A stretch of 13,859 bases of DNA, from positions 1-13,859 of the IMG/VR virus record IMGVR_UViG_2690315992_000015; one strand, 5' to 3'. The position numbers were made by a program, and so were the translations under genes. This stretch comes from a virus (taxonomy: Duplodnaviria > Heunggongvirae > Uroviricota > Caudoviricetes). Below the pieces are notes generated by a model. The model saw only the letters and a list, made by a program, of their open reading frames with translations, made no database searches and was not told the origin of the DNA. Below, piece by piece: positions 1 to 13,859 of this stretch. Positions within the stretch are counted from its first letter, which is position 1. The number at the start of each line of letters is the position of its first letter.

Positions 1-462
1 TTATTTCACTTCTTTAAAACCAGCGGCTTTCATCACCAGTTCCATTTGCGCCATAGTGATACCTTTTTTGGCATCTTCAGCAGAAACGTTGATTCCTGAA
101 ATACCCTGCAGGGCTTTAAAATCCACTTTTTCCATATCGATAGTCACGTTTTCCTGCGCGTAGGTATCTGTATAGGTTAATTTTTCTTCAACACCCGCGA
201 TGTTTTTGTATTTGGCGCTTAACGGCTCAAGTGTCTTGGCAGCGTCTTCTTTGGTGGTTGCACCAATAGAAGCAAATTGAATTTTGGTTTCAGAAGATTG
301 CTTAAGCACCTTGTCACCTTTGTAGACATAGGTAATGGCAATTTCAGTGCCGTTCAGATTGGCGCTGAATTTCTTCGATTCTTCTTTGTCACCGCAGCCA
401 GCAAGAGAGAAAACCAGAACAGATGCAACAACGAGGGAAAACAGCTTATTGAAAGCCTTCAT
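1..462 (-). CDS. yehR: DUF1307-family lipoprotein (YehR-like)
   Basis: Minus-strand ORF whose stop (TAA) is at 1-3. N-terminus MKAFNKLFSLVVASVLVFSLAGC has a hydrophobic signal peptide and a LAGC lipobox. GGAG lies about 8 nt upstream of the ATG at 460-462, so the track's 474 start (MEFYMKAF) is probably an over-extension. Identity as YehR is from recalled similarity. Confidence 0.8.
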   Translation of the reverse strand: MKAFNKLFSLVVASVLVFSLAGCGDKEESKKFSANLNGTEIAITYVYKGDKVLKQSSETKIQFASIGATTKEDAAKTLEPLSAKYKNIAGVEEKLTYTDTYAQENVTIDMEKVDFKALQGISGINVSAEDAKKGITMAQMELVMKAAGFKEVK

Positions 463-491
463 GTAAAACTCCATTTTATTTAATCAAGAAA

Positions 492-508
492 CTGGTGACT
501 CTCACCAG
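492..508 (-). other. intergenic stem-loop (7-bp stem ctggtga / tcaccag, 3-nt loop) between yehQ stop and yehR start; possible attenuator or RNA-stabilising hairpin
   Basis: Perfect inverted repeat read directly from the sequence; on the minus strand it is followed by the T-rich TTTCTTGATT. Function not established. Confidence 0.3.
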
Positions 509-586
509 GGGCTATATAGAATATGCCTAATACCGTGACGTGAGCAGTCCGGAACTGGAGTAGAACTCTTAGTAAAAAGCACTATT

Positions 587-2587
587 TCATCCTTGTTGCT
601 GAAGCATGGGGAATAATTGTTCGCAAAGTAAAACACCGTTATTCATTGCTTCTACCCGTGCCTCGCTTTCTGTATTACGAAATTGTCCCAACACATGTGC
701 CAGCCGATAAAAACCGACCGCGGAGAGGTCATTCGCCAGCAACTCTGCCTGACTAATAGCGCTCTGTTCCTGATAGCGCCAGCCGTTATGGAGCAGTTGA
801 ATAAGTAACGCCTGGCAGCGCATCAGCAACTGATGAGCGGTAGACGGCACAGGCAAAACGCTGGCAGAAGGTAGCGGTGCCACAGGCGCAGTTTCTGCGT
901 CCAGCGCCCAGGCGCGGGTTTTTGTCATCATCACCCGTGGTTCCAGTGTCAATTGCCCATCAACAAAACTGACAAAGCCAGAAACCAGACTCACGGGGTC
1001 GTCTGTTTGTTGCAAAAGCGCCGCCATGCGTTCAACGGCAAAAGGAGAACAGGCAGATGCCGGAAGGGATAACGTCAGGAGATTATCTTCACCTTCGCCG
1101 CTGATTACCTGCGCATCCAGCGTCTGGCGGCTGCTATCCCAACCGAGCGAAATACACTCAGCGACCGGCAGAATAAATAAGTTATCGACCTGATTAAGAG
1201 GCCGTATGCAGGCGGGGGGACGCTGGCGTAAATATTCCCGCAAAGCCACAATGCCCGGCTGGCGTAACGGCGCGCTCAACATTTGCCAGGCATCAGGCGA
1301 CAGCGGCACAACGCTGCTTAAGCGGTTGCGGGTAGCTAACAGCAGCTCGCCATCGGCACTGCGTTTTGCTGCTTGTGAAACAATTTGCCCACCCGCCAGT
1401 GCGCCAGCCTGAAAACTAAACAGCCGACGCGTAGCTGCCGGTGAGTTTTCCTGTTCACTTCGCGGCCAACTGCGCGAAAGGTGCAAAATACTGCCGGTGT
1501 CGGGATCGGTAAACCAGATGCGTAAACCATAATGCTCAATATCCTGCCAGCAACGCATACCTAAAGACACCAGCCGCAGATGATCAAGCTTTGCTTCTCC
1601 GGCAATGCCAGAGCCAACGACCGTGCGCCACGGCACAGGAGGAACTTCACCAACACTGTCGCGCCGGGCCATCTCTTGTGCGCAATTTAATCGACTGTTT
1701 AATGCCGCAAGCTGACGTAAGCATTCTCCGGCATGATAGTGGCTGGCGCGAGTGTGGAAGGCATCAACGCTTGCCCGTAGCTGTCGTAGTGATTCACTCA
1801 CCCAGCGCCAGTTGCAGGCCTCTGCCGCCTGCAATGCGCGGTTGAATGCTGCCTCGTAGTGAATAAGCGGCTGGCTGATGCCGCCAAGCCATAATGCCTG
1901 GCTTAATTGCTGAACATATTGACGACACGTTTGGCCTTCTTCGCTGGCAAACGGATCGTCAGATGATGTGACGTGTTCGCTGCGCATCTGCCAGATTAAA
2001 TGGTTAAATTCTGCTTGCTGCGCTTTGGCCTCGACGAAGGCCTGCACAGCCAGTACGACATGTTCGCAAAGTGTGCCTTCAATACAATCACAACGGGCGA
2101 AACGAATACTGCTACGGGAATAAAAACGCACATCGCTCATCGGTAAGCGGGCAGAGGGAATTTCGCCCGGCGCACAGAACAACTCAATGGTGATGCCTTT
2201 AGCGACCAGCGCCTGCGCGCGTTTGCGGGTGGCATCGGGCAGGGTAGCCAGTTCTTCCAGCCAGATTGCCGGATCCCACTCTTCTTCTTTTTCCGTGGGC
2301 TGGACGGTGGCACAAAGTCGTTGATAACTTAACACCAGCATCACGCGATGACGGCACATGCCGCTGGCCCCGCAGCTGCACTGAGCCTCTTTCAGTGCCT
2401 GGCTGTTCGCCAGCTGGGTACGGACACCGTCACTGAAGGTGGCGATTAAAGCGCCGTTCTCATGGCTGATTTCCGGGACGTTGCCATTTTCCAGTTCCTT
2501 AAGACTGCGCTTAACAAAACCGGCATTGCTTAACGCCGTCAGTGCCTGCGGTGTCAGTTCTAATAATTCCGGACGTAGTGAATTCAT
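587..2587 (-). CDS. yehQ: SWIM zinc-finger domain protein (YehQ-like)
   Basis: Long minus-strand ORF with two CxC...CxH motifs (CSCGASGMCRH and CDCIEGTLCEH). The track ORF runs through the N gap as X residues; the real start is most likely the ATG at 2585-2587 (MNSLRPELL), 5 nt from the gap. Upstream partner genes would lie beyond the gap. Confidence 0.8.
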   Translation of the reverse strand: MNSLRPELLELTPQALTALSNAGFVKRSLKELENGNVPEISHENGALIATFSDGVRTQLANSQALKEAQCSCGASGMCRHRVMLVLSYQRLCATVQPTEKEEEWDPAIWLEELATLPDATRKRAQALVAKGITIELFCAPGEIPSARLPMSDVRFYSRSSIRFARCDCIEGTLCEHVVLAVQAFVEAKAQQAEFNHLIWQMRSEHVTSSDDPFASEEGQTCRQYVQQLSQALWLGGISQPLIHYEAAFNRALQAAEACNWRWVSESLRQLRASVDAFHTRASHYHAGECLRQLAALNSRLNCAQEMARRDSVGEVPPVPWRTVVGSGIAGEAKLDHLRLVSLGMRCWQDIEHYGLRIWFTDPDTGSILHLSRSWPRSEQENSPAATRRLFSFQAGALAGGQIVSQAAKRSADGELLLATRNRLSSVVPLSPDAWQMLSAPLRQPGIVALREYLRQRPPACIRPLNQVDNLFILPVAECISLGWDSSRQTLDAQVISGEGEDNLLTLSLPASACSPFAVERMAALLQQTDDPVSLVSGFVSFVDGQLTLEPRVMMTKTRAWALDAETAPVAPLPSASVLPVPSTAHQLLMRCQALLIQLLHNGWRYQEQSAISQAELLANDLSAVGFYRLAHVLGQFRNTESEARVEAMNNGVLLCEQLFPMLQQQG

Positions 2588-2592
2588 GACTG

Positions 2593-2606
2593 NNNNNNNN
2601 NNNNNN
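2593..2606. other. assembly gap (14 N)
   Basis: Literal run of n in the sequence; flanking sequence on the two sides belongs to different gene contexts. Confidence 0.97.
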
Positions 2607-2623
2607 ATCAAAAACAGGTTTCA

Positions 2624-3121
2624 TTATTTAGCCCTCACCAGAAAGTTAAATGCAATATTTCGCGGTCTGACAGCAACAAAATTCACACCATCACCCACAG
2701 AGTTACTGGTGAAATTAAATCGTGAAAATCCTGGCTGATTTCCGGCGATGCCATCATGAAAGTTAATTGCGTGTCCCGCACCTCCGCCTATATTCCCGGC
2801 AAACTGAGAAAAGTTTGTAGCTTCCTGCCAGCTTAATAATTCGCGACCACCATCTGCACCTCGCCCGTCATCCCAGATACGAATGAAATCACCGCGGGCT
2901 TCAGGTAATACCAGCGAAGGAAATACTTTCGCCAGCACAGGATAATCAGTGGCAGAGAATTTCGCGCCGTTGAACTTCAAAAACACCATACTGGACCAGC
3001 TGTCGATTACAGTATTTGGCATTGCAGCGGACGGCCAGAAGAACGGAACGCCAATAGCTGGAGCACCTTCTCCCAAACCAACGTTTAAGAAAATGCAGAG
3101 GTACCAGCTAACTGGCATCAT
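2624..3121 (-). CDS. phage tail-fibre variable C-terminal cassette (tail-collar-like domain), silent orientation of an invertible segment
   Basis: Gly/Asn-rich minus-strand ORF with the motif YPVLAKVFPSLVLPEARGDFIRIWDDGRG typical of the tail-collar region in Mu S / e14 StfP-type fibre tips. It begins next to the crossover site adjacent to the invertase gene and is closed upstream by a stop at 3131-3133, so it is not expressed as a full fibre in this orientation. The functional fusion point would be the crossover site, not the track's ATG. Confidence 0.55.
   Translation of the reverse strand: MMPVSWYLCIFLNVGLGEGAPAIGVPFFWPSAAMPNTVIDSWSSMVFLKFNGAKFSATDYPVLAKVFPSLVLPEARGDFIRIWDDGRGADGGRELLSWQEATNFSQFAGNIGGGAGHAINFHDGIAGNQPGFSRFNFTSNSVGDGVNFVAVRPRNIAFNFLVRAK
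3068..3093. other. hix/gix-like 26-bp invertase crossover site
   Basis: TTCTCCCAAACC-AA-CGTTTAAGAAAA: imperfect 12-bp inverted half-sites around a 2-bp core, fitting the recalled consensus TTnTCnnAAACC-nn-GGTTTnnGAnAA (compare hixL TTCTTGAAAACCAAGGTTTTTGATAA). It sits about 55 bp upstream of the invertase start, inside the 5' end of the fibre cassette. Confidence 0.55.
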
Positions 3122-3148
3122 CTCCGGTTTTTATTCAGGGGGATGATC

Positions 3149-3715
3149 ATGCTTATTGGCTATGTACGCGTGTCAACAAATGACCAGAACACCGATTTGC
3201 AACGTAATGCACTGAACTGCGCGGGATGTGAGCGGATTTTTGAGGACAAAATCAGTGGCACTAAGTCCGACAGACCGGGGCTGAAAAAACTACTCAGGAC
3301 ACTATCGGCAGGAGACACGCTGGTTGTCTGGAAGCTGGACAGGTTGGGGCGCAGTATGCGGCATCTTGTTACGCTGATAGAAGAGTTGCGCCAGCGTGGT
3401 GTGAATTTCAGAAGCCTGACTGACAGTATTGATACCAGTACCCCAATGGGCCGTTTCTTTTTTCATGTCATGGGTGCCCTGGCTGAAATGGAACGCGAAC
3501 TGATAGTTGAACGTACCAGGGCAGGGCTGGCTGCAGCTCGTGCCAAAGGCAGAGTAGGTGGACGCCGTCCTAAGTTGACCACCGAACAGTGGGCACAGAT
3601 TGGGCGTTTACTCGAGGCCGGAGAATCAATACAGCGTATTGCACTGATTTTTGATGTAGGCGTTTCTACCATTTATAGAAAATTTCCGGCAAATAAGATC
3701 AATGAATCCCCCTGA
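3149..3715 (+). CDS. pin: site-specific DNA invertase, serine recombinase (Pin/Gin/Cin/Hin family)
   Basis: N-terminus MLIGYVRVSTNDQNTDLQRNAL with the catalytic Ser in RVSTNDQ and a C-terminal HTH (VSTIYRKF); near-identical in pattern to e14 Pin as recalled. AGGGGG at 3137-3142 favours the ATG at 3149 over the track's 3143. Confidence 0.92.
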   Translation: MLIGYVRVSTNDQNTDLQRNALNCAGCERIFEDKISGTKSDRPGLKKLLRTLSAGDTLVVWKLDRLGRSMRHLVTLIEELRQRGVNFRSLTDSIDTSTPMGRFFFHVMGALAEMERELIVERTRAGLAAARAKGRVGGRRPKLTTEQWAQIGRLLEAGESIQRIALIFDVGVSTIYRKFPANKINESP

Positions 3716-3762
3716 ATCAGCATTATGTTGATTATCCCTGCAAGCAGACAAATACCGTTATT

Positions 3763-3780
3763 TTGTGTGAATAACGACAC
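3763..3780 (+). promoter_or_regulatory. candidate Ogr/Delta-dependent late promoter element (TGT-N12-ACA) for the FI operon
   Basis: TGTgtgaataacgacACA lies 78-95 bp upstream of the FI start codon. P2/P4 late promoters carry a TGT-N12-ACA dyad centred near -55 (established knowledge). A single motif occurrence; the transcription start is not verified. Confidence 0.45.
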
Positions 3781-3857
3781 AACTGCGCTTAGCTGTTTGT
3801 CAGGCACAATCACTTCAACATAGGGCGAAGCCTAATCCAATCAGGAGGTTCGCCACT

Positions 3858-5030
3858 ATGGCTCAGGATTACCACCACGGGGTGCGCGTTGTTGAAGTCA
3901 ACGAAGGCACCCGATCTATTACCACGGTGAGCACCGCCATCGTGGGTATGGTCTGCACGGGCGATGATGCCGATGCAAAAATGTTTCCTCTTAATAAACC
4001 CGTGCTGATCACTGATGTGCTGACTGCCAGCGGTAAAGCGGGTGAGTCAGGTACTCTGGCCCGTTCGCTGGATGCCATCGCTGACCAGGCAAAACCCGTG
4101 ACCATTGTTGTGCGTGTGCCGCAGGGTGAAACGGAAGACGAAACCACGACCAATATCATCGGCGCAGTGACTGCTGAAGGTAAAAAAACAGGTATGAAAG
4201 CCCTGTTATCTGCCCAGTCACAGCTCGGCGTTAAACCGCGCATTCTCGGCGTGCCAGGCCACGACACCAAGGCGGTAGCTACTGAGTTGCTGAGCGTGGC
4301 GCAACGCCTGCGTGGATTTGCTTACCTGTCAGCGTATGGCTGCAAGACAGTGCAGGAGGCGATCACTTACCGCGAAAACTTCAGCCAGCGCGAAGGGATG
4401 CTGATCTGGCCTGACTTTACTGGTTGGGACACGGTGCTGAATGCCGAAGCAACGGCATATGCCACCGCCCGTGCGCTTGGTCTGCGCGCCAAAATTGACG
4501 AGCAGACCGGATGGCACAAAAGCCTGTCCAACGTGGGCGTGAACGGTGTCACCGGAATTTCTGCAGATGTGTTCTGGGATCTGCAGGACCCGGCAACCGA
4601 TGCAGGTCTGCTGAACCAGAACGACGTCACCACGCTTGTGCGTAAAGACGGTTTCCGCTTCTGGGGTTCCCGCTGCCTGAGTGATGACCCGCTCTTTGCC
4701 TTCGAAAACTACACCCGCACGGCGCAGGTGCTGATGGACACGATGGCAGAAGCACACATGTGGGCGGTGGATAAACCGCTTAACCCGTCGCTGGCCCGCG
4801 ACATTATCGAAGGTATCCGCGCCAAAATGCGCAGCCTGGTCAGTCAGGGCTATCTCATTGGTGGTGATTGCTGGCTGGATGAGTCGGTGAACGACAAAGA
4901 CACGCTGAAAGCCGGAAAACTCACCATCGACTACGACTACACGCCAGTGCCGCCACTTGAAAACCTGATGCTGCGTCAGCGCATCACCGATCAGTACCTG
5001 GTGAATTTCGCCAGCCAGGTCAGCGCGTAA
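3858..5030 (+). CDS. FI: contractile tail sheath protein (P2 gpFI-like)
   Basis: 390-aa ORF with a strong AGGAGG RBS, in the conserved position at the head of the FI-FII-E-T-U-D operon; length and sequence are typical of the P2 sheath protein. Confidence 0.9.
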
Positions 5031-5039
5031 GGGGACAAC

Positions 5040-5555
5040 ATGGCATTACCACGCAAATTAAAACACCTGAACCTGTTTAACGACGGGAACAACTGGCAGG
5101 GGATCGTTGAGTCGCTGACGCTGCCGAAATTTACCCGCAAATATGAGAAGTATCGCGGCGGCGGAATGCCGGGTGCGGTGGATGTGGATCTGGGGCTTGA
5201 TGACAGTGCGCTGGACACAGAATTTTCCATTGGTGGTACTGAATTGCTGCTGTTTAAACAGATGGGTAAAGCCACGGTGGATGGCATCCAGCTGCGCTTT
5301 ACCGGCTCTATTCAGCGTGACGATACCGGGGAAGTGCAGGCCGTGGAGCTTGTCGTGCGTGGACGTCACAAAGAAGTGGATTCCGGCGAGTGGAAGACGG
5401 GCGAAAGCAACACCACCAAAGTGACCAGTACCAACAGCTACGCGAAGCTGACCATCAATGGTGAGGTGCTCTATGAAGTGGACCTTATCAACATGGTGGA
5501 AATTGTGGACGGTGTGGACCTGATGGAAGCGCACCGCAACGCCCTCGGCCTCTGA
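5040..5555 (+). CDS. FII: tail tube protein (P2 gpFII-like)
   Basis: 171-aa ORF 9 bp downstream of FI with an AGGGGA RBS; size and position match the P2 tube protein. Confidence 0.9.
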   Translation: MALPRKLKHLNLFNDGNNWQGIVESLTLPKFTRKYEKYRGGGMPGAVDVDLGLDDSALDTEFSIGGTELLLFKQMGKATVDGIQLRFTGSIQRDDTGEVQAVELVVRGRHKEVDSGEWKTGESNTTKVTSTNSYAKLTINGEVLYEVDLINMVEIVDGVDLMEAHRNALGL

Positions 5556-5566
5556 TATATCTGAAC

Positions 5567-5584
5567 GGCGCGGGATACCGCGCC
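5567..5584 (+). other. GC-rich hairpin (GGCGCGG-gata-CCGCGCC) between FII and E
   Basis: Perfect 7-bp GC stem read from the sequence; no U-tract follows, so it is more likely a partial attenuator or mRNA-stability element than a full terminator. Confidence 0.3.
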
Positions 5585-5609
5585 AGAACCCAATTGACAG
5601 GACAGCAAA

Positions 5610-5912
5610 ATGAGCGATAAGCAGACTGAAAAGACCATTCAACTGGATACCCCCATCAAGCGCGGTAAAACAGAAATCACCGAAATTGTGCTGCGTAAAC
5701 CGCAGTCCGGTGCGCTGCGCGGTACACGCCTGCAGGCCATTATGGATATGGATGTAAACGCGATGATGACCGTGATCCCCCGCATCTCCAGTCCGGCACT
5801 GACTGCACAGGAAATTGCAGAGATGGACCCGGCAGATCTCACTGCCATGTCGGTTGAGGTTGTCACTTTTTTGTTGAAGAAGTCGGTGCTTGCCGGTTTA
5901 CCGACAGCCTGA
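5610..5912 (+). CDS. E: tail assembly chaperone (P2 gpE-like)
   Basis: 100-aa ORF between the tube and tape-measure genes; the N-terminal pattern (LDTPIKRGKTEITEIVLRKP...GALRG) resembles P2 gpE; contains the slippery heptamer near its 3' end. Confidence 0.85.
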   Translation: MSDKQTEKTIQLDTPIKRGKTEITEIVLRKPQSGALRGTRLQAIMDMDVNAMMTVIPRISSPALTAQEIAEMDPADLTAMSVEVVTFLLKKSVLAGLPTA

Positions 5913-6046
5913 CGGTTGACGATCTGGTGGCAGATATCGCCACCATTTTTCACTGGCCGCCATCCGTTACTGACGTTATGCCGCTGACCGAAGTGCTGGA
6001 ATGGCGGTATAAAGCGATTCAGAGAAGCGGGGCCAACGATGAGTGA
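5610..6046 (+). CDS. E': E+E' fusion made by programmed -1 frameshift at T_TTT_TTG (5867-5873)
   Basis: The canonical P2 slippery heptamer is in the zero frame at 5867-5873. The -1 frame is open from 5873 to a TGA at 6044-6046 (VEEVGACRFTDSLTVDDLVADIATIFHWPPSVTDVMPLTEVLEWRYKAIQRSGANDE) and overlaps the T start, as in P2. Confidence 0.65.
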
Positions 6047-7553
6047 TAACAACCTGCGTCTGCAGGTCATTCTTAATGCGGTTGACAAGCTCACCCGTCC
6101 ATTTCGATCTGCGCAGGCCAGTTCAAGAGAACTGGCTGCTGCTGTCAAAAAATCCCGCGATGCAATAAAGCAGCTTGATCAGGCCGGGAGCAGTCTGGAC
6201 AGCTTCCGAAAGCTGCAGGCAGAAAATCAGAAATTAGGCGACAGGCTGAACTATGCCCGCCAGCGTGCAAATTTGCTCAGTCAGGAACTGGGAGCGATGG
6301 GGCCGCCTTCGCAACGTCAGGTTGTTGCTCTGGGCCGTCAACGGCTGGCTGTTCAGCGCCTGGAAGAACGCCAGAAAAAGCTGCAGCAGCAGACGGCGCT
6401 TGTGCGTGCTGAACTGTACCGGGCGGGAATTTCTGCGAAAGACGATGCGGGAGCAACTGCCCGTTTAGCCCGTGAAACATCACGTTATAACCAGGAACTT
6501 TCGAAACAGGAGGCGCGGCTGAAGCGACTGGGGGAAGCTCAGCGCAGGATGAATGCAGCGCGTGCCAGTTATGCCCGTTCGCTGGAGGTGCGTGATCGTA
6601 TTGCAGGTGCCGGAGCCACCACCACGGCTGCAGGGCTGGCAATGGGTGCGCCAGTGATGGCGGCAGTAAAAAGCTATACCAGCATGGAAGATGCCATGAA
6701 AGGTGTGGCAAAGCAGGTCAATGGTCTGCGTGACGATAATGGCAACCGCACTGCACGTTTTTATGAAATGCAGGATGCCATCAAGGCTGCCAGCGAACAG
6801 TTGCCGATGGAAAACGGTGCGGTGGACTTCGCTGCACTGGTTGAAGGTGGTGCGCGCATGAACGTCGCAAACCCTGACGACAGCTGGGAAGATCAGAAAC
6901 GTGACCTGCTGGCCTTCGCCAGTACGGCAGCAAAGGCGGCAACAGCCTTTGAGCTGCCAGCGGATGAACTGTCAGAAAGTCTGGGGAAAATCGCCCAGCT
7001 CTACAAAATCCCCACCCGCAATATTGAACAGCTCGGTGATGCGCTGAACTATCTGGATGATAACGCCATGTCGAAAGGGGCAGACATCATTGATGTGATG
7101 CAACGTCTGGGCGGTGTGGCTGACCGTCTGGATTATCGTAAAGCGGCGGCGCTGGGTTCCACCTTCCTGACACTGGGCGCTGCGCCAGAGGTTGCAGCCA
7201 GTGCAGCAAACGCGATGGTGCGTGAATTGTCCATTGCCACCATGCAAAGCAAGAGTTTCTTTGAAGGGATGAATCTGCTGAAACTCAATCCTGAAGTGAT
7301 TGAAAAGCAGATGACGAAGGATGCGATGGGAACCATCCAGCGCGTGCTGGAGAAGGTAAACGCGCTGCCGCAGGACAAGCGCCTGTCTGCCATGACTATG
7401 TTGTTTGGTAAAGAGTTTGGCGATGACGCGGCGAAACTGGCAAACAACCTGCCGGAACTGCAGCGTCAGTTAAAACTGACAGCGGGCAATGATGCGCTCG
7501 GCTCCATGCAGAAAGAATCCGACATTAACAAGGATTCACTTTCTGCGCAGTGA
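6039..7553 (+). CDS. T: tail tape measure protein, N-terminal 504 codons (P2 gpT-like), ends at an in-frame TGA
   Basis: Coiled-coil-rich, Ala/Gln/Arg/Leu-rich N-terminus typical of tape measure proteins, in the correct operon position. The TGA at 7551-7553 is followed in the same frame by the next ORF. Confidence 0.8.
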   Translation: MSDNNLRLQVILNAVDKLTRPFRSAQASSRELAAAVKKSRDAIKQLDQAGSSLDSFRKLQAENQKLGDRLNYARQRANLLSQELGAMGPPSQRQVVALGRQRLAVQRLEERQKKLQQQTALVRAELYRAGISAKDDAGATARLARETSRYNQELSKQEARLKRLGEAQRRMNAARASYARSLEVRDRIAGAGATTTAAGLAMGAPVMAAVKSYTSMEDAMKGVAKQVNGLRDDNGNRTARFYEMQDAIKAASEQLPMENGAVDFAALVEGGARMNVANPDDSWEDQKRDLLAFASTAAKAATAFELPADELSESLGKIAQLYKIPTRNIEQLGDALNYLDDNAMSKGADIIDVMQRLGGVADRLDYRKAAALGSTFLTLGAAPEVAASAANAMVRELSIATMQSKSFFEGMNLLKLNPEVIEKQMTKDAMGTIQRVLEKVNALPQDKRLSAMTMLFGKEFGDDAAKLANNLPELQRQLKLTAGNDALGSMQKESDINKDSLSAQ

Positions 7554-9116
7554 TTGCTGGTCAAAACCGGAGCGCAGAACACCTTCAGCAGCCTGGGCGA
7601 AACGCTGCGCCAGCCGCTGATGGATATTCTGTACACGGTGAAAAGCGTCACGGGGGCGTTGCGTCGCTGGGTGGAAGCTAACCCGGAACTGACAGGCACA
7701 CTGATGAAAGCATCGGCTGTTGTGGCTGCGGTTACCGTCGGCCTCGGCACCTTAGCGGTGGCGCTGGCTGCAGTGCTGGGGCCGCTGGCAGTGATCCGTC
7801 TGGGATTCTCTGTGTTGGGTATCAAAACGTTATCTTCCGTTACGGCAGCAGTAACTCGAACCAGCAGCGCGTTGTCCTGGCTGGCTGGCGCACCACTGGC
7901 ACTGCTGCGACGCGGGCTTGCTTCATCGGGCAACGCCGCAGGTTTACTTACTGCGCCGTTGTCGTCTTTGCGCCGCACGGCATCACTGACGGGAAATGTC
8001 CTGAAAACTGTAGCAGGTGCGCCGGTTGCACTTTTGCGGTCTGGATTATCCGGTTTACGTGCGGTTGCTGTGATGTTTATGAATCCACTGGCAGCACTAC
8101 GCGGCGGGCTGGCTGCCGCAGGCACGGTGCTGCGAGTACTGGCATCTGGTCCACTGGCGATGTTGCGCGTTGCCCTGTATGCCGTATCTGGTCTGTTAGG
8201 TGCTCTGCTCAGTCCGATAGGTCTTGTGGTTACTGCACTGGCGGGTGTGGCACTGGTTGTCTGGAAATACTGGCAACCCATCACCGCATTTCTCGGTGGC
8301 GTGGTGGAAGGATTCAAAGCGGCGGCAGGTCCCATCAGTGCAGCGTTCGAACCGCTTAAGCCTGTGTTCCAGTGGATTGGTGACAAAGTGCAGGCGCTGT
8401 GGGGCTGGTTTACTGATCTGCTGACGCCCGTTAAGTCGACTTCTGCCGAACTGCAGAGCGCAGCGGCAATGGGGCGACGATTCGGGGAGGCACTGGCGGA
8501 AGGGCTGAATATGGTTATGCATCCGCTGGACTCCCTGAAATCTGGCGTTTCCTGGTTGCTGGATAAACTCGGCATTGTCAGTAAAGAGGCTGCAAAGGCG
8601 AAACTGCCGGAAAGCGTGACGCGTCAGCAACCTGCGACGGTGAATGCAGACGGTAAAGTGATGATGCCATCGGGTGGTTTTCCGTCATGGGGATATGGCT
8701 TTGCGGGGATGTATGACAGCGGCGGCTATATCCCGCGCGGGCAGTTTGGCATCGTCGGTGAAAACGGGCCGGAAATTGTTAACGGCCCGGCAAATGTGAC
8801 CAGCCGGAGAAATACAGCTGCACTGGCTGCCGTTGTTGCCGGAATGATGGGCGTTGCTGCCGCGCCTGCAGAGCTTCCACCGTTGCACCCTTTGGCACTT
8901 CCCGCGAAAGGCGGCGAAGCGATGGTGAGTCGTGCAGCCACTGTGCCGCCCGTTCAACGGATTGAGGCACCGATGCAGATCATCATTCAGACGCAGCCAG
9001 GACAAAGTGCGCAGGATATTGCGCGGGAGGTGGCCCGCCAGCTTGATGAACGTGAACGTAGGCTGAAGGCAAAAGCCAGGAGTAACTACAGCGATCAGGG
9101 GGGATACGACGCATGA
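7554..9116 (+). CDS. T: tail tape measure protein, C-terminal 520 codons (same frame as 6039-7553)
   Basis: Same reading frame as the upstream segment (6039 and 7554 are both multiples of 3). Contains the hydrophobic repeat region and C-terminal part of a tape measure protein; the stop overlaps the U start (ATGA). The two segments together give about 1025 codons, a plausible size for a P2-family tape measure protein. Confidence 0.75.
   Translation: MLVKTGAQNTFSSLGETLRQPLMDILYTVKSVTGALRRWVEANPELTGTLMKASAVVAAVTVGLGTLAVALAAVLGPLAVIRLGFSVLGIKTLSSVTAAVTRTSSALSWLAGAPLALLRRGLASSGNAAGLLTAPLSSLRRTASLTGNVLKTVAGAPVALLRSGLSGLRAVAVMFMNPLAALRGGLAAAGTVLRVLASGPLAMLRVALYAVSGLLGALLSPIGLVVTALAGVALVVWKYWQPITAFLGGVVEGFKAAAGPISAAFEPLKPVFQWIGDKVQALWGWFTDLLTPVKSTSAELQSAAAMGRRFGEALAEGLNMVMHPLDSLKSGVSWLLDKLGIVSKEAAKAKLPESVTRQQPATVNADGKVMMPSGGFPSWGYGFAGMYDSGGYIPRGQFGIVGENGPEIVNGPANVTSRRNTAALAAVVAGMMGVAAAPAELPPLHPLALPAKGGEAMVSRAATVPPVQRIEAPMQIIIQTQPGQSAQDIAREVARQLDERERRLKAKARSNYSDQGGYDA
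7779..8177 (+). repeat. degenerate tandem repeats (about 66 bp / 22 aa period) inside the tape measure gene
   Basis: Recurring peptide motif GPLAVIRLGF / APLALLRRGL / APLSSLRRTA / APVALLRSGL / NPLAALRGGL / GPLAMLRVAL at roughly 22-aa spacing; the corresponding DNA motif CCACTGGC...CTGCG..G recurs. Confidence 0.5.
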
Positions 9117-9598
9117 TGATGGTGCTGGGATTGTACGTGTTTATGCTGCGCACCGTGCCGTATCAGGAGCTGCAGTATCAACGCAGCTGGCGACATGCGG
9201 CAAACAGCCGGGTAAACCGACGTCCGTCCACGCAGTTTCTGGGACCGGACAACGACATGCTGACGCTTTCCGGTGTTCTTATGCCGGAGATAACAGGTGG
9301 CAGGCTGTCGTTGCTGGCACTGGAGCAGATGGCAGAACAGGGGAAAGCATGGCCCCTGATTGAAGGCAGCGGCACGATTTATGGCATGTATGTGATTGAG
9401 GGACTGAATCAGACTAAAACGGAGTTTTTCCGCGACGGTATGCCGCGCCGGATTGAGTTCACCCTGTCGCTCAAACGGGTGGATGAATCCCTGTCCGATA
9501 TGTTCGGTGATCTCAGTGCGCAACTGAATAATCTGCAGGAAACGGCAACGTCTGCCTTAAGCGATATCAGTAAAACGGTGGGAGGGCTGCTGTCGTGA
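9113..9598 (+). CDS. U: tail protein (P2 gpU-like)
   Basis: 161-aa ORF with a GGGGGGA RBS; start overlaps the T stop. Motifs QFLGPDNDMLTLSGVL and WPLIEGSGTIYGMYVIEGL match the recalled P2 gpU pattern. Confidence 0.88.
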   Translation: MMMVLGLYVFMLRTVPYQELQYQRSWRHAANSRVNRRPSTQFLGPDNDMLTLSGVLMPEITGGRLSLLALEQMAEQGKAWPLIEGSGTIYGMYVIEGLNQTKTEFFRDGMPRRIEFTLSLKRVDESLSDMFGDLSAQLNNLQETATSALSDISKTVGGLLS

Positions 9599-10695
9599 AT
9601 TTCAGCTCTGAACTGCTTAACAAAAGCAACAAAACTCCGGCATTCAGCATCAGTATTGAGGGTAGGGATATCACCACTGTGCTGGATAACCGCCTGATGA
9701 GTCTGACTCTGACGGACAATCGGGGCTTTGAAGCAGACCAGCTTGATCTGGAGCTGGACGATGCCGACGGGAAAATCGTGCTGCCGCGCCGTGGTGCGGT
9801 CATTACGCTGGCGCTGGGCTGGAAGGGGCAGCCGCTTTTCCCGAAAGGGGCATTCACGGTGGACGAGATTGAACACACTGGCGCACCGGACCGCCTGACT
9901 ATCCGGGCGCGAAGTGCTGATTTTCGGGAAACGCTGAATACCCGCCGTGAAAAATCGTGGCACAAGACCACCATTGGGGAAGTGGTGAAGGAGATAGCCG
10001 CGCGGCACAAGCTGAAGATGGTACTGGGTAAAGACCTGTCGGATAAGCTCGTGGAGCATATAGACCAGACTAATGAGAGTGACGGTAGTTTTCTGATGCG
10101 GCTGGCGCGACAGTACGGTGCCATCGCGTCGGTGAAAAATGGCAATCTGTTATTCATCCGGCAGGGGCAGGGCAAAAGCGCCACTGGTAAACCACTGCCA
10201 GTGATCACTATCACACGCAAGGACGGCGACAGTCACCGCTTTACCCTGGCAGATCGCGGAGCCTACACGGGCGTAATTGCCAGCTGGTTGCATACCCGCG
10301 AACCTGCGAAGAAAGAAAGCACCACGGTGAAGCGTAAGCGCAGAACTAAGAAGCAGAAGAAAGAGCCGGAAGCGAAGCAGGGCGATTACCTGGTGGGTAC
10401 GGATGAAAACGTGCTGGTACTTAATCGCACTTATGCCAACCGGAGCAACGCTGAACGGGCAGCGAAAATGCAGTGGGAACGCCTGCAACGCGGCGTTGCG
10501 TCATTCTCGCTACAACTGGCGGAAGGGCGGGCAGATCTTTACACGGAAATGCCAGTGAAAGTTAGTGGCTTTAAACAACCGATAGATGATGCGGAATGGA
10601 CCATTACGACTCTGACGCATACCGTCAGCCCCGATAACGGTTTTACAACCAGTCTGGAGCTTGAAGTGAGGATTGATGATTTCGAAATGGAATGA
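9595..10695 (+). CDS. D: tail protein D (P2 gpD-like)
   Basis: 366-aa ORF with a GTG start overlapping the U stop (GTGA); last gene of the tail operon before ogr, as in P2. Confidence 0.88.
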   Translation: MNFSSELLNKSNKTPAFSISIEGRDITTVLDNRLMSLTLTDNRGFEADQLDLELDDADGKIVLPRRGAVITLALGWKGQPLFPKGAFTVDEIEHTGAPDRLTIRARSADFRETLNTRREKSWHKTTIGEVVKEIAARHKLKMVLGKDLSDKLVEHIDQTNESDGSFLMRLARQYGAIASVKNGNLLFIRQGQGKSATGKPLPVITITRKDGDSHRFTLADRGAYTGVIASWLHTREPAKKESTTVKRKRRTKKQKKEPEAKQGDYLVGTDENVLVLNRTYANRSNAERAAKMQWERLQRGVASFSLQLAEGRADLYTEMPVKVSGFKQPIDDAEWTITTLTHTVSPDNGFTTSLELEVRIDDFEME

Positions 10696-10785
10696 TTCTT
10701 CGCAATGGAGAACTTTTAAGTTTGCAAAATGGAATAATGCGGTATCATTATTGTGAATTTAGCAAAAATGGGGAGAACTCGAAAA

Positions 10786-11004
10786 ATGATGATTTGCCCA
10801 CTGTGTGGAAGTGCCGCCCATACTCGCAGCAGTTTTCAGGTATCTTCATTGACCAAAGAGCGTTACAACCAGTGCCAGAATATTAACTGCAGCCATACTT
10901 TTGTAACCCATGAAACTTTTGTTCGTTCGATTGCAACGCCAAAAGAGTCAAATCCGGTTCAGCCGCATCCAATGAAATCAGGACAGGTGGCGCTCTCTCT
11001 TTGA
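10786..11004 (+). CDS. ogr: Ogr/Delta-family zinc-finger late transcription activator
   Basis: 72-aa product MMICPLCGSAAHTRSS...CQNINCSHTF with the C-x2-C...C-x4-C arrangement of P2 Ogr. GGGGAGA lies 9 nt upstream of the ATG at 10786; the track's 10753 start is probably an over-extension. Confidence 0.9.
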   Translation: MMICPLCGSAAHTRSSFQVSSLTKERYNQCQNINCSHTFVTHETFVRSIATPKESNPVQPHPMKSGQVALSL

Positions 11005-11084
11005 CGCTGCCGCCATTTTGTCGCCATCGTTAAAAAACAGTGCTTCTAACGTCATGATTTTAAACGGCATAAATTTCAGGCAAC

Positions 11085-11127
11085 AAAAAACCCATCAACC
11101 TTGAACCGAAATGGCGGGGTTGATGGG
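11085..11127 (-). terminator. rho-independent terminator of ybjL
   Basis: Stem CCCATCAACC / GGTTGATGGG (10 bp), followed on the minus strand by a TTTTTT run (plus-strand AAAAAA at 11085-11090); lies 110-150 bp downstream of the ybjL stop. Confidence 0.55.
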
Positions 11128-11239
11128 CTCCACAAAATGGGGACATCAAAGAAAAGCAGTGGCACTAATTAAGACTGATGCCCTGCGGAAAAGTTCTGCG
11201 GTTGTGCAAAAAAATTTCATTTTCAGGGCAACTTCAGTT

Positions 11240-12925
11240 TTATCCTAATCCTGGCCATACCATGACGATGATTGTCCCTGCCAGCGTCAGCAGGACGTTG
11301 GCGATTGCGTAGGTGCCCGCATAGCCCAGCGCAGGGATGTTACTGCGAGCTGTATCACTGATGATCTCCATTGCCGGCGCGCAGGTGCGTGCGCCCATCA
11401 TTGCGCCGAACAACAGTGCGCGGTTCATTCGCAATACATAAGCACCGAACAAGAAACAGATAACCACGGGCACAAGACTGACAATTAATCCGGCAATCAA
11501 CATCTGACCGCCAATCGCGCCCAGGCCGTTATTAATACCGCTACCGGCGCTCAGACCAACGCCTGCCATAAACACCATCAAGCCGAACTCTTTCACCATG
11601 CTTAATGCACCTTGCGGAATGTAACCGAAGGTCGGGTGGTTAGCACGCATAAAGCCCAGCATAATTCCGGCGAATAACAACCCGGCAGCGTTCCCCATGC
11701 CGAAACTGAATGTGCTGAACTGGAAGGTGATCATCCCGATCATCAGCCCAATAACAAAGAAGGCGCAGAATGCCAGCAGGTCAGTGACCTGGCTGTGAAT
11801 CGAGATAAAGCCGATGCGATCGGCGATGGTTTTTACGCGGCGGGCATCGCCGCTGACTTGTAAAACGTCACCTTTGTTAAGCACGACGTTGTCATCTATC
11901 GGCATCTCAATCTGGCTACGAATGACGCGGTTAAGGAAGCAACCGTGATCGGTCAACTTCAGTTGTGCGAGACGTTTACCTACAGCGTTATGGTTTTTAA
12001 CGACCACTTCTTCAGTGACGATACGCATGTCGAGAAGGTCACGATCGAAAACTTCTTTACCGTTACGGAAGCTGGGATCGAGTCGGGCATGGGCGTCGGG
12101 ATAGCCTACCAACGCTATTTCATCGCCCATTTGTAGCACGGCATCACCGTCTGGATTTGCCAGAATCCCGTTACGTCGAATACGTTCAATGTAGCAGCCG
12201 GTTTGTCGATAAATACCCAGTTCACGCAGATTTTTGCCGTCGGTCCAGGCCACCAGCTCCGGGCCGACGCGATAGGCGCGGATCACCGGTAAATAAACCT
12301 TACGGTTGGCATCAGTGTCCAGGCCACGTTCGCGGGCGATTTGCTGGGCGCTGGTCTGTAAGTCCTGATGCTGCAATTTCGGCAAGTAACGCGCACCAAC
12401 AATCAAACTCACCAGACCGATTAAATAGGTTAAGGCATACCCGAGGCTCAGATTATCCAGTGCCAGTGAGAGCTGCCTGCTTTCCATGCCGAAATGACGC
12501 AGTGTATCGCCAGCACCGACCAGCACCGGTGTCGACGTCATAGAGCCTGCTAACATACCGGCCGTCAGGCCAATATCCCAGCCAAACAGCTTACCTAACC
12601 CTAAGGCGATCACCAGCGCACTGCCAACCATCACCAGTGCTAACATTAGGTAATTTTTCCCATCGCGAAAAAAAATGGAAAAAAAGTTCGGTCCGGCTTC
12701 GACCCCGACGCAGAAAATAAACAGCATAAAGCCAAGATTAAGCGCATCGGTGTTAATGCTGAAATGTTGTTGGCCTAATAACAGCGATACGACTAAAACG
12801 CCAATGGAATTACCCAGTTGGATCGAACCAAGTCGTAACTTTCCGAGACATAGCCCAAGCGCGAGGACCACAAATAATAACAGAATGTAATTCCCATTTA
12901 ACAATTCGGCGACGTTTATATTCAC
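11240..12925 (-). CDS. ybjL: AAE-family putative transporter YbjL (two transmembrane domains flanking TrkA-C-type cytoplasmic domains)
   Basis: 561-aa minus-strand ORF recognised as E. coli YbjL by sequence and by the flanking ybjM and grxA. GTG start at 12923-12925. Confidence 0.93.
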
Positions 12926-13194
12926 GGAGGCTAACTTCTTGTTTACTAGTAAGCTGTTGAAAGAAATGGTAATTTACGATAATGTTTTTTACCAGGATTC
13001 AGGGCGCAGATTCATTCAGCGCACCTAAACGATAGTAAAGTAACAATATATTTTACTAGTGTAATCACATTAGGTATCAACGGCTATATGAATTGCGTTG
13101 GCCTATATTAGCATGGAATGCGAAGCGGCTTTATCTTACTGAACGCCACACTGGCGAAAAATGTGTTCGATAGACGCAGTGTCAGGAGGAACGA

Positions 13195-13572
13195 GTGAAA
13201 CATAAACAACGTTGGGCGGGGGCAATCTGCTGTTTTGTCCTCTTCATTGTGGTGTGCCTTTTTCTGGCGACGCACATGAAAGGCGCTTTTCGGGCTGCCG
13301 GGCATCCTGAAATCGGCTTGCTATTTTTCATTCTTCCTGGAGCAGTTGCCAGTTTCTTTTCACAGCGTAGAGAAGTCCTGAAACCTCTATTTGGCGCAAT
13401 GCTGGCGGCACCCTGTTCAATGCTCATTATGCGGCTGTTTTTTTCACCGACGCGCTCATTCTGGCAAGAGCTGGCATGGTTACTAAGCGCGGTGTTCTGG
13501 TGTGCGCTGGGGGCACTGTGTTTCTTATTTATCAGTAGTTTGTTTAAACCACAGCACAGAAAAAATCAGTAA
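13195..13572 (+). CDS. ybjM: inner-membrane protein YbjM
   Basis: 125-aa hydrophobic ORF with a GTG start preceded by AGGAGG (13184-13189); conserved neighbour between ybjL and grxA. Confidence 0.85.
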   Translation: MKHKQRWAGAICCFVLFIVVCLFLATHMKGAFRAAGHPEIGLLFFILPGAVASFFSQRREVLKPLFGAMLAAPCSMLIMRLFFSPTRSFWQELAWLLSAVFWCALGALCFLFISSLFKPQHRKNQ

Positions 13573-13591
13573 AGCCCTCAACGCGAGGGCT
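13573..13591 (-). terminator. stem-loop between convergent ybjM and grxA (AGCCCTC-aacgc-GAGGGCT); likely grxA terminator
   Basis: Perfect 7-bp stem; on the minus strand it is followed by the T-rich TTTACTGATTTTTT. Confidence 0.45.
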
Positions 13592-13601
13592 TGTCAGACG
13601 A

Positions 13602-13859
13602 TCAGGCGTCCAGATTTTCTTTCACCCATGCAGCAAAATCGGTATAGCCGCCGATATGTTGCTGATCGACAAAAATCTGCGGCACGGTTTCTACGGGTTT
13701 ACCTGCCTTTTGTTGTAGATCTTCTTTAGTGATCCCTTCCGCACGAATATCTACATACTGATACTGAAAATCATCGCGTTCATTGCTCAATTTCTCAGCC
13801 AGATCTTTTGCACGCACACAGTAAGGGCAACCCGAACGACCAAAAATAACGGTTTGCAT
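13602..13859 (-). CDS. grxA: glutaredoxin 1
   Basis: 85-aa product with the CPYC active site (MQTVIFGRSGCPYCVRAKDLAEKL...), recognised as E. coli GrxA. The start codon is the last three bases of the window, so the promoter is outside it. Confidence 0.95.
   Translation of the reverse strand: MQTVIFGRSGCPYCVRAKDLAEKLSNERDDFQYQYVDIRAEGITKEDLQQKAGKPVETVPQIFVDQQHIGGYTDFAAWVKENLDA

Follow-up and report, generated by a model that had tools for sequence, protein, structure and literature searches.

The window analysed in this study, that is, the whole stretch of 13,859 nucleotides covering positions 1 to 13,859 of the IMG/VR virus record IMGVR_UViG_2690315992_000015, carries the genes for a DNA invertase, tail sheath FI, tail tube FII, the pair E/E', T, U, D and ogr, in this order. 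The E/E' pair is placed between FII (5040-5555, plus strand; Pfam PF04985, E = 9e-60), the upstream neighbour of E encoding the tail tube, and the tape measure gene T (6039-9116, plus strand; Pfam PF10145), which is 3078 nt long and equal in this respect to the intact T of phage 500465-1. According to the list of open reading frames and the translation, gene E, the zero-frame tail assembly chaperone gene, occupies positions 5610-5912 of the plus strand, starts with ATG at 5610, ends with TGA at 5910-5912 and encodes 100 amino acids.

Near the 3' end of E, the slippery heptamer T_TTT_TTG is located at 5867-5873 (plus strand), with TTT (5868-5870) as the P-site codon and TTG (5871-5873) as the A-site codon. 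Base 5867 is the third position of the E codon ACT, which gives AC[T TTT TTG] and thus the X_XXY_YYZ phase, in the zero-frame context ...GTT GTC ACT TTT TTG TTG AAG.... The frame scan indicated that the -1 frame is closed upstream of the heptamer by a TGA at 5855-5857 (plus strand) and is open from 5858, three codons ahead of the heptamer, and that frames 0 and -1 are both open over 5858-5909. The -1-frame extension E' (5870-6046, plus strand, from the translation) comprises 58 sense codons followed by TGA at 6044-6046. Under a P2-style annotation, join(5610..5873, 5873..6046), the fusion E+E' has 145 amino acids, and the E' stop overlaps the T start codon, ATG 6039-6041, by 8 nt. A first-pass annotation of this DNA had placed the heptamer at these positions in the zero frame of E, followed by an open -1 frame of 58 codons ending at TGA 6044-6046 and overlapping the start of the tape measure gene; the coordinates and phase were confirmed by the codon check, the open frame by the frame scan and translation, and the overlap was found to be of 8 nt, at ATG 6039.

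The heptamer lies 13 codons ahead of the E stop and is the sole in-phase X_XXY_YYZ heptamer within E. By itself its occurrence is within chance, as TTTTTTG was observed five times in the window and was expected 4.4 times; likewise, about 10% of the -1 reads begun in the phage genes of the window remain open for at least 58 codons.

To characterize the products, E and the -1 product were scanned against Pfam at E ≤ 0.01. E matched PF10109 (Phage_TAC_7; E = 1e-18; bit score 67.5, the cut-off being 25; 78 of the 79 model positions covered, 1-78), a family whose description names "tail assembly chaperone proteins E, or 41 or 14", and the -1 product matched PF06528 (Phage_P2_GpE; E = 4e-19; bit score 68.2, the cut-off being 23; the whole model covered, 1-37 of 37); these were the only matches. 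E belongs to PHROG 103, "tail protein" (E = 4e-44), and E' to PHROG 1756 (E = 9e-23), both being tail families in PHROGs. No NCBIfam model was matched, and a PDB sequence search with E+E' gave nothing at E ≤ 1.

The fused product was compared with E+E' of phage P2, re-derived for this purpose from the P2 record. Both sequences are 49% identical and 71% similar over 139 residues with no gaps, and similarity to P2 E' is present in the gap-free alignment of the -1 extension. P2 shares with the window the heptamer TTTTTTG, its phase, the 58-codon -1 extension and the 8-nt overlap between the E' stop and the T start, together with the order of the FETUD operon, FI-FII-E-E'-T-U-D-ogr. Moreover, in the P2 record E+E' is entered as the product of a -1 frameshift, with the residue after the slip joined as Leu. 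On the other hand, E has 100 amino acids in the window and 91 in P2, the zero-frame tails after the slip site (12 and six codons, respectively) are unrelated in sequence, the codon aligned with the E' "pseudo-start" is GTG in the window and ATG in P2, and the genus differs (Wadgaonvirus type versus Peduovirus). P2 is described as using TTTTTTG to produce a 91-aa E and a 142-aa E+E' (PMC3091744); this frameshift was demonstrated by Christie et al. 2002 (J Bacteriol 184:6522), as cited in PMC3091744, PMC3931495 and PMC5009743. For P2, both E and E+E' are reported to be needed for tail assembly. The view that the P2 E/E' frameshift is conserved at this locus was thus supported by the PF10109 and PF06528 matches, by the P2 alignment, and by the identity of heptamer, phase, extension and overlap. 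Very probably, then, an E. coli prophage that is P2-like (Peduoviridae, Wadgaonvirus type) carries here its E/E+E' cassette for tail assembly chaperones, with -1 ribosomal slippage at 5867-5873.

A closer relative was found in Escherichia phage 500465-1 (NC_049342; Peduoviridae, Wadgaonvirus), to which positions 5500-6200 of the window (701 bases) are 99.9% identical; the only mismatch in this segment, at 6098, lies inside T. The E/E' DNA of the window is identical to that of 500465-1 (gp38/gp39) and to that of the prophages in E. coli 13E0767 and WS3294A. In both prophages the chromosomal end is as in the window, with ogr adjoining ybjL. In the records of 500465-1 and of these prophages, E' is annotated as a separate CDS and not as a frameshift product.

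To assess the conservation of the cassette, a set of 17 phage records from at least 15 genera was studied, of which 16 were Peduoviridae (the window included) and one was a Vhmlvirus. In each of the 17, a single plausible X_XXY_YYZ heptamer lies in phase towards the 3' end of E, and it is followed by a -1 open reading frame with the motif ADIAxxFxW...WRxxAxxRSG. The heptamer was TTTTTTG in 11 records, the window and P2 among them, TTTTTTC in two and TTTTTTT in one, and GGGAAAG, CCCTTTC and AAATTTT in a Mannheimia phage, Klebsiella phage ST16-OXA48phi5.4 and Citrobacter phage Shae_phiSM, respectively. The zero-frame tail of E after the heptamer is 4-22 codons long in this set and variable in sequence, whereas the -1 frame is conserved from the heptamer on. 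In addition, a scan for prophages with one genome per bacterial species yielded 78 loci, of which the 71 of full length were counted; every one of the 71 has a T6N heptamer in phase within the zone that is open in both frames (55 TTTTTTG, 12 TTTTTTA, two TTTTTTT and two TTTTTTC). Since this set was partly retrieved with the peptide DIATIFHW, the conservation of that motif in it is partly built in; the heptamer is unaffected. TTTTTTA replaces TTTTTTG in about one in six relatives (13 sequences), and the A-site codon in frame 0 is Leu for TTTTTTA and TTTTTTG alike. Phase, position, homology of the -1 product and conservation of the heptamer, when combined, indicate a cassette beyond chance.

According to the proposed mechanism, most ribosomes would translate E (5610-5912) to its own stop and produce the 100-aa chaperone, while a minority would slip back one base on U_UUU_UUG, where the tRNA-Phe on UUU and the tRNA-Leu on UUG would re-pair on UUU UUU. 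The slipped ribosomes would then read the -1 frame to the TGA at 6044-6046, giving the 145-aa E+E'. Residue 88 of the fusion is Leu or Phe, depending on the slippage route: a slip after accommodation of the Leu-tRNA, as in the join of the P2 record, would give the junction ...VVTF-L-VEEVG..., and a slip of the P-site tRNA alone would give ...VVTF-F-VEEVG..., the length of the fusion being unchanged. Results with synthetic E. coli constructs, in which U_UUU_UUA and U_UUU_UUU were much less shift-prone than A_AAA_AAG (PMC5009743), count against slippage at this site.

The slip site is a homopolymer, and the sequence by itself does not tell a ribosomal from a transcriptional route; E+E' might also be obtained if RNA polymerase inserted one more U at the T6 run, the edited transcript then being translated normally. 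Longer runs are found in phage Smp131, with T7, and in the close relative L005 (IMGVR_UViG_2734481921_000002), with T8. However, productive transcriptional slippage in bacteria is described for runs of about nine A or T (PMC5009743), and the run here is of six. Furthermore, the heteropolymeric in-phase heptamers of three phages (GGGAAAG, CCCTTTC and AAATTTT) fit tandem tRNA slippage and not polymerase stuttering, and therefore favour a ribosomal over a transcriptional slip. In all 88 sequences, moreover, the run keeps one fixed phase, and phase matters to ribosomes but not to the polymerase. The transcriptional route is in consequence regarded as highly improbable, and ribosomal tandem slippage would be the best-supported mechanism.

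In L005, the T8 run replaces the T6/T7 run at the slip site (1742-1749 of that record), so that E and E' form one continuous open reading frame and the separate E stop is not reached. A sequencing error in the homopolymer could account for this T8, as could a mutation; alternatively, the short form may be obtained there via slippage in the opposite direction.

The existing annotations of relatives suggest another origin for E', namely an independent 39-aa protein started at GTG 5927, for which a frameshift would be unnecessary. The corresponding 39-codon piece (5927-6046, plus strand) is called in relatives as a separate "GpE family phage tail protein" with a GTG start, and relatives carry it as a stand-alone CDS of 120 nt under that name (PGAP, RefSeq, Prodigal). 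Among 82 relatives, 62 have ATG or GTG as the codon aligned to 5927 and, where Val is encoded there, it is GTG in 43 of 44 cases. Nevertheless, the other 20 show no start codon there (ATC, ATT, ATA, CAG, CAA, GCC, TGG or GTC), and all of these keep the in-phase heptamer. Shine-Dalgarno-like sequences were absent from the 18 nt upstream of 5927 in every lineage. Conservation at the protein level extends over the 19 codons of the -1 frame that separate the heptamer from 5927, with FVEEVGACRF in the window and FVAELGAVTF in P2. For P2 itself, secondary sources report E' to be translated as an extension of E and to have no ribosome binding site (PMC3931495). A separately initiated E' is accordingly considered very unlikely, and the stand-alone 39-aa E' is judged, from the sequence comparisons, to be a systematic annotation artefact of the frameshift. 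E' is listed unjoined to E in NC_049342, NZ_CP020107 and NZ_CP035819 and in the gene calls of the source assembly.

RNA elements that might stimulate slippage were searched for. The 87 nt downstream of the heptamer (5874-5960) fold slightly better than shuffled sequences (z = -2.1), and a 6-bp stem is possible within them, between 5882-5887 and 5900-5905, at a distance of 8 nt from the heptamer. Relatives show a single U-A to C-G change in this stem. RNAalifold returned no consensus pairs downstream of the heptamer among 38 relatives, and the covariation of the candidate stem was not above that of the controls, being matched in 41 of 500 shuffles, with equally high scores for slid registers. 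The stem of the candidate hairpin (5882-5905) is lost in the Providencia, Xenorhabdus and P2 relatives, and a downstream stimulatory hairpin was rejected as a conserved element. No conserved 3' stem-loop or pseudoknot of the dnaX or IS type, at 5-9 nt after the heptamer, was found at the E/E' site, nor any Rfam family at E ≤ 1 over positions 5750-6100. The heptamer thus appears to act without conserved downstream RNA structure. The lack of a conserved hairpin agrees with that reported for P2, KS5, KS14 and KL3, for which no downstream hairpin was found (PMC3091744).

A terminator-like hairpin of 7 bp was noted inside the E' coding sequence (5925-5945), followed by TTTTT at 5946-5950. As a terminator (5925-5950) it was discarded: five of the seven pairs are forced by the conserved peptide L-V-A-D-I-A-T-I, no more than 27 among 60 unique relatives can form all seven, and close relatives have an interrupted U-run. 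The structure is probably coincidental. A second hairpin, G+C-rich and also of 7 bp (GGCGCGG GAUA CCGCGCC), is located at 5567-5584 within the 54-nt gap between FII and E. Its fold is of -17.4 kcal/mol (z = -3.1) with no U-tract after it, and a Mannheimia relative has an annotated terminator at the equivalent position; this hairpin may keep E and the genes after it at a lower expression level than FI and FII.

On the 5' side of the heptamer, the Shine-Dalgarno-like sequence GAGGUG ends 5 nt ahead of it in most enterobacterial relatives, the window having GAGGUU at 5856-5861. GAG is used at the corresponding Glu codon in 51 of 57 sequences, against a background of 24-36%. However, many unrelated alignment columns are equally extreme at synonymous sites owing to shared ancestry, and the GAG excess fades on phylogenetic thinning, with five GAG versus four GAA when clustered at 60%. 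The motif is absent from KS14, BEK, Smp131 and MAR. That the enterobacterial GAGGUG is a 5' element which holds the ribosome while UUU occupies the P site, thereby tuning the E:E+E' ratio, is deemed unlikely. If true, it would constitute a stimulator of a kind undescribed for P2-type sites, where stimulators are reported to be absent; the window has the weaker form GAGGUU.

These features may be compared with those of E. coli dnaX, where the heptamer A_AAA_AAG is accompanied by a 5' Shine-Dalgarno-like element and a 3' stem-loop. The tandem-slippage phase X_XXY_YYZ is common to dnaX and E/E', and a Shine-Dalgarno-like GAGGU(G/U) is present upstream of the E/E' heptamer as well. The E/E' site differs in having no conserved 3' stem-loop and in its Shine-Dalgarno-like element, which is 5-7 nt from the heptamer and is not conserved beyond the enterobacterial branch; in dnaX this element is about 10 nt from the heptamer.

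The pair had also been set beside G/GT of phage lambda in the first-pass annotation, a parallel that was sustained. In gene position and logic both systems are analogous, given that lambda G/GT is likewise found between the major tail (tube) gene and the tape measure gene. The slippery heptamer of lambda is G_GGA_AAG. They are not homologous in sequence (PMC5009743): Pfam gave PF10109 and PF06528 only, and the tail proteins of P2 and lambda are reported to have no similarity (PMC3931495); moreover, lambda is a siphovirus and the phage of the window is a contractile-tail phage. E/E' appears to work like G/GT but is not a sequence member of the lambda G/GT family. The work on lambda G/GT (Levin et al. 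1993; Xu et al. 2004, 2013, 2014, as cited in PMC5009743) serves as the model for the functions proposed here. By analogy, the E part would bind the tape measure protein T, the E' part would recruit the tail tube protein, and the slip frequency would set a fixed E:E+E' ratio. T is accordingly the presumed client of E and E+E', and FII the presumed partner of the E' domain. In lambda the G:GT ratio is about 30:1, and the P2-type frameshift is reported to reach 2- to 3-fold the lambda efficiency (PMC5009743). The occurrence of slippage in the window, its frequency and the roles of both proteins are all assigned by analogy with P2 and lambda.

As the first-pass annotation had indicated, T carries a stop, a premature TGA at 7551-7553 (plus strand) that is caused by G>A at 7553 and corresponds to W505* in a gene of 1025 codons. 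At codon 505 the three closest relatives (500465-1, 13E0767 and WS3294A) have TGG and the window has TGA. The identical 504-aa T product was detected on 18 contigs from at least six samples, comprising two NCBI assemblies, three sequencing runs and one metagenome. These samples being independent, W505* is considered a real, lineage-wide allele and not a read error. The chaperone pair had in turn been described as intact, which holds at the sequence level, E/E' being identical to that of phage 500465-1; an intact sequence is not proof that the cassette is used in this prophage.

Tails could be unbuildable with a T that ends at residue 504 of 1025, and the cassette would then be a silent relic, a possibility that concerns its use and is compatible with its identity as a frameshift site. 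W505* is fixed in the lineage (18 contigs, at least six samples), and E/E' is identical to the copies of intact phages, which would leave no time for it to have decayed; the phage genes of the window differ from those of the closest relative by six amino-acid changes, W505* counted. On the other hand, every tail gene of the window apart from T is of full length (FI, FII, E, U, D and ogr), and some full-length T might be made via read-through, UGA being the leakiest stop codon in E. coli. The chances that the cassette is such a relic are put at a little better than even. As T is truncated and the contig breaks within the tail-fibre region, the prophage may never assemble tails, and the cassette probably lies idle in a defective prophage. 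The identity of E/E' to the intact-phage copies suggests that its intactness reflects a recent lesion in T and not continued selection in the host, that is, the cassette is probably intact only because the T mutation is recent.

A further in-phase heptamer, G_GGG_GGA, was observed in T at 9098-9104, four codons ahead of the T stop. A slip there would give a T-U fusion, given that the -1 frame is the frame of U, whose ATG at 9113 overlaps the T stop TGA at 9114-9116 (ATGA). This heptamer is probably due to chance, and P2 has no T/U overlap.

With respect to the context of the prophage, the window is base-for-base identical to contig CYDX01000001.1 of GCA_001285585.2, including a run of 14 N at 2593-2606. 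To the left of this gap are the chromosomal genes yehR and yehQ, which are not neighbours of this prophage in other E. coli genomes, and to the right the sequence begins inside the invertible tail-fibre segment. The junction between yehQ and the prophage was rejected as a chromosomal rearrangement, as it is a scaffold join through the 14 N; the remainder of the prophage lies outside the window. A serine DNA invertase gene (3143-3715; Resolvase and HTH_7) adjoins an open reading frame of 165 amino acids on the minus strand (2624-3121) that corresponds to the alternative C-terminal tail-fibre fragment of relatives; the region 2624-3715 is a host-range switch of the Gin/Cin type, and the repeat created by the invertible segment is probably the cause of the assembly break. 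At the other end, the gene of the sRNA RybB is located at 11082-11160 on the minus strand (Rfam RF00110, 105 bits), and a distance of 78 nt separates its 3' end from the end of ogr (10786-11004). The right attachment site of the prophage is probably at or beside the 3' end of rybB, between rybB and ybjL.

The E/E+E' frameshift is already known, having been described for P2 in 2002, and is conserved in P2-like phages, so that the case of the window is ordinary: it is a textbook example of recoding, found in a type of prophage that is very common. Given the lineage-wide nonsense mutation in its client T, the intact-looking cassette is no evidence of a working prophage. Little new biology is added by this locus, and its main use is the correction of annotations, with E' being described as part of a 145-aa frameshift product rather than as a 39-aa protein. 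Thousands of records would be put right by a scan that looks for PF10109 and PF06528 along with a T6N heptamer in phase.
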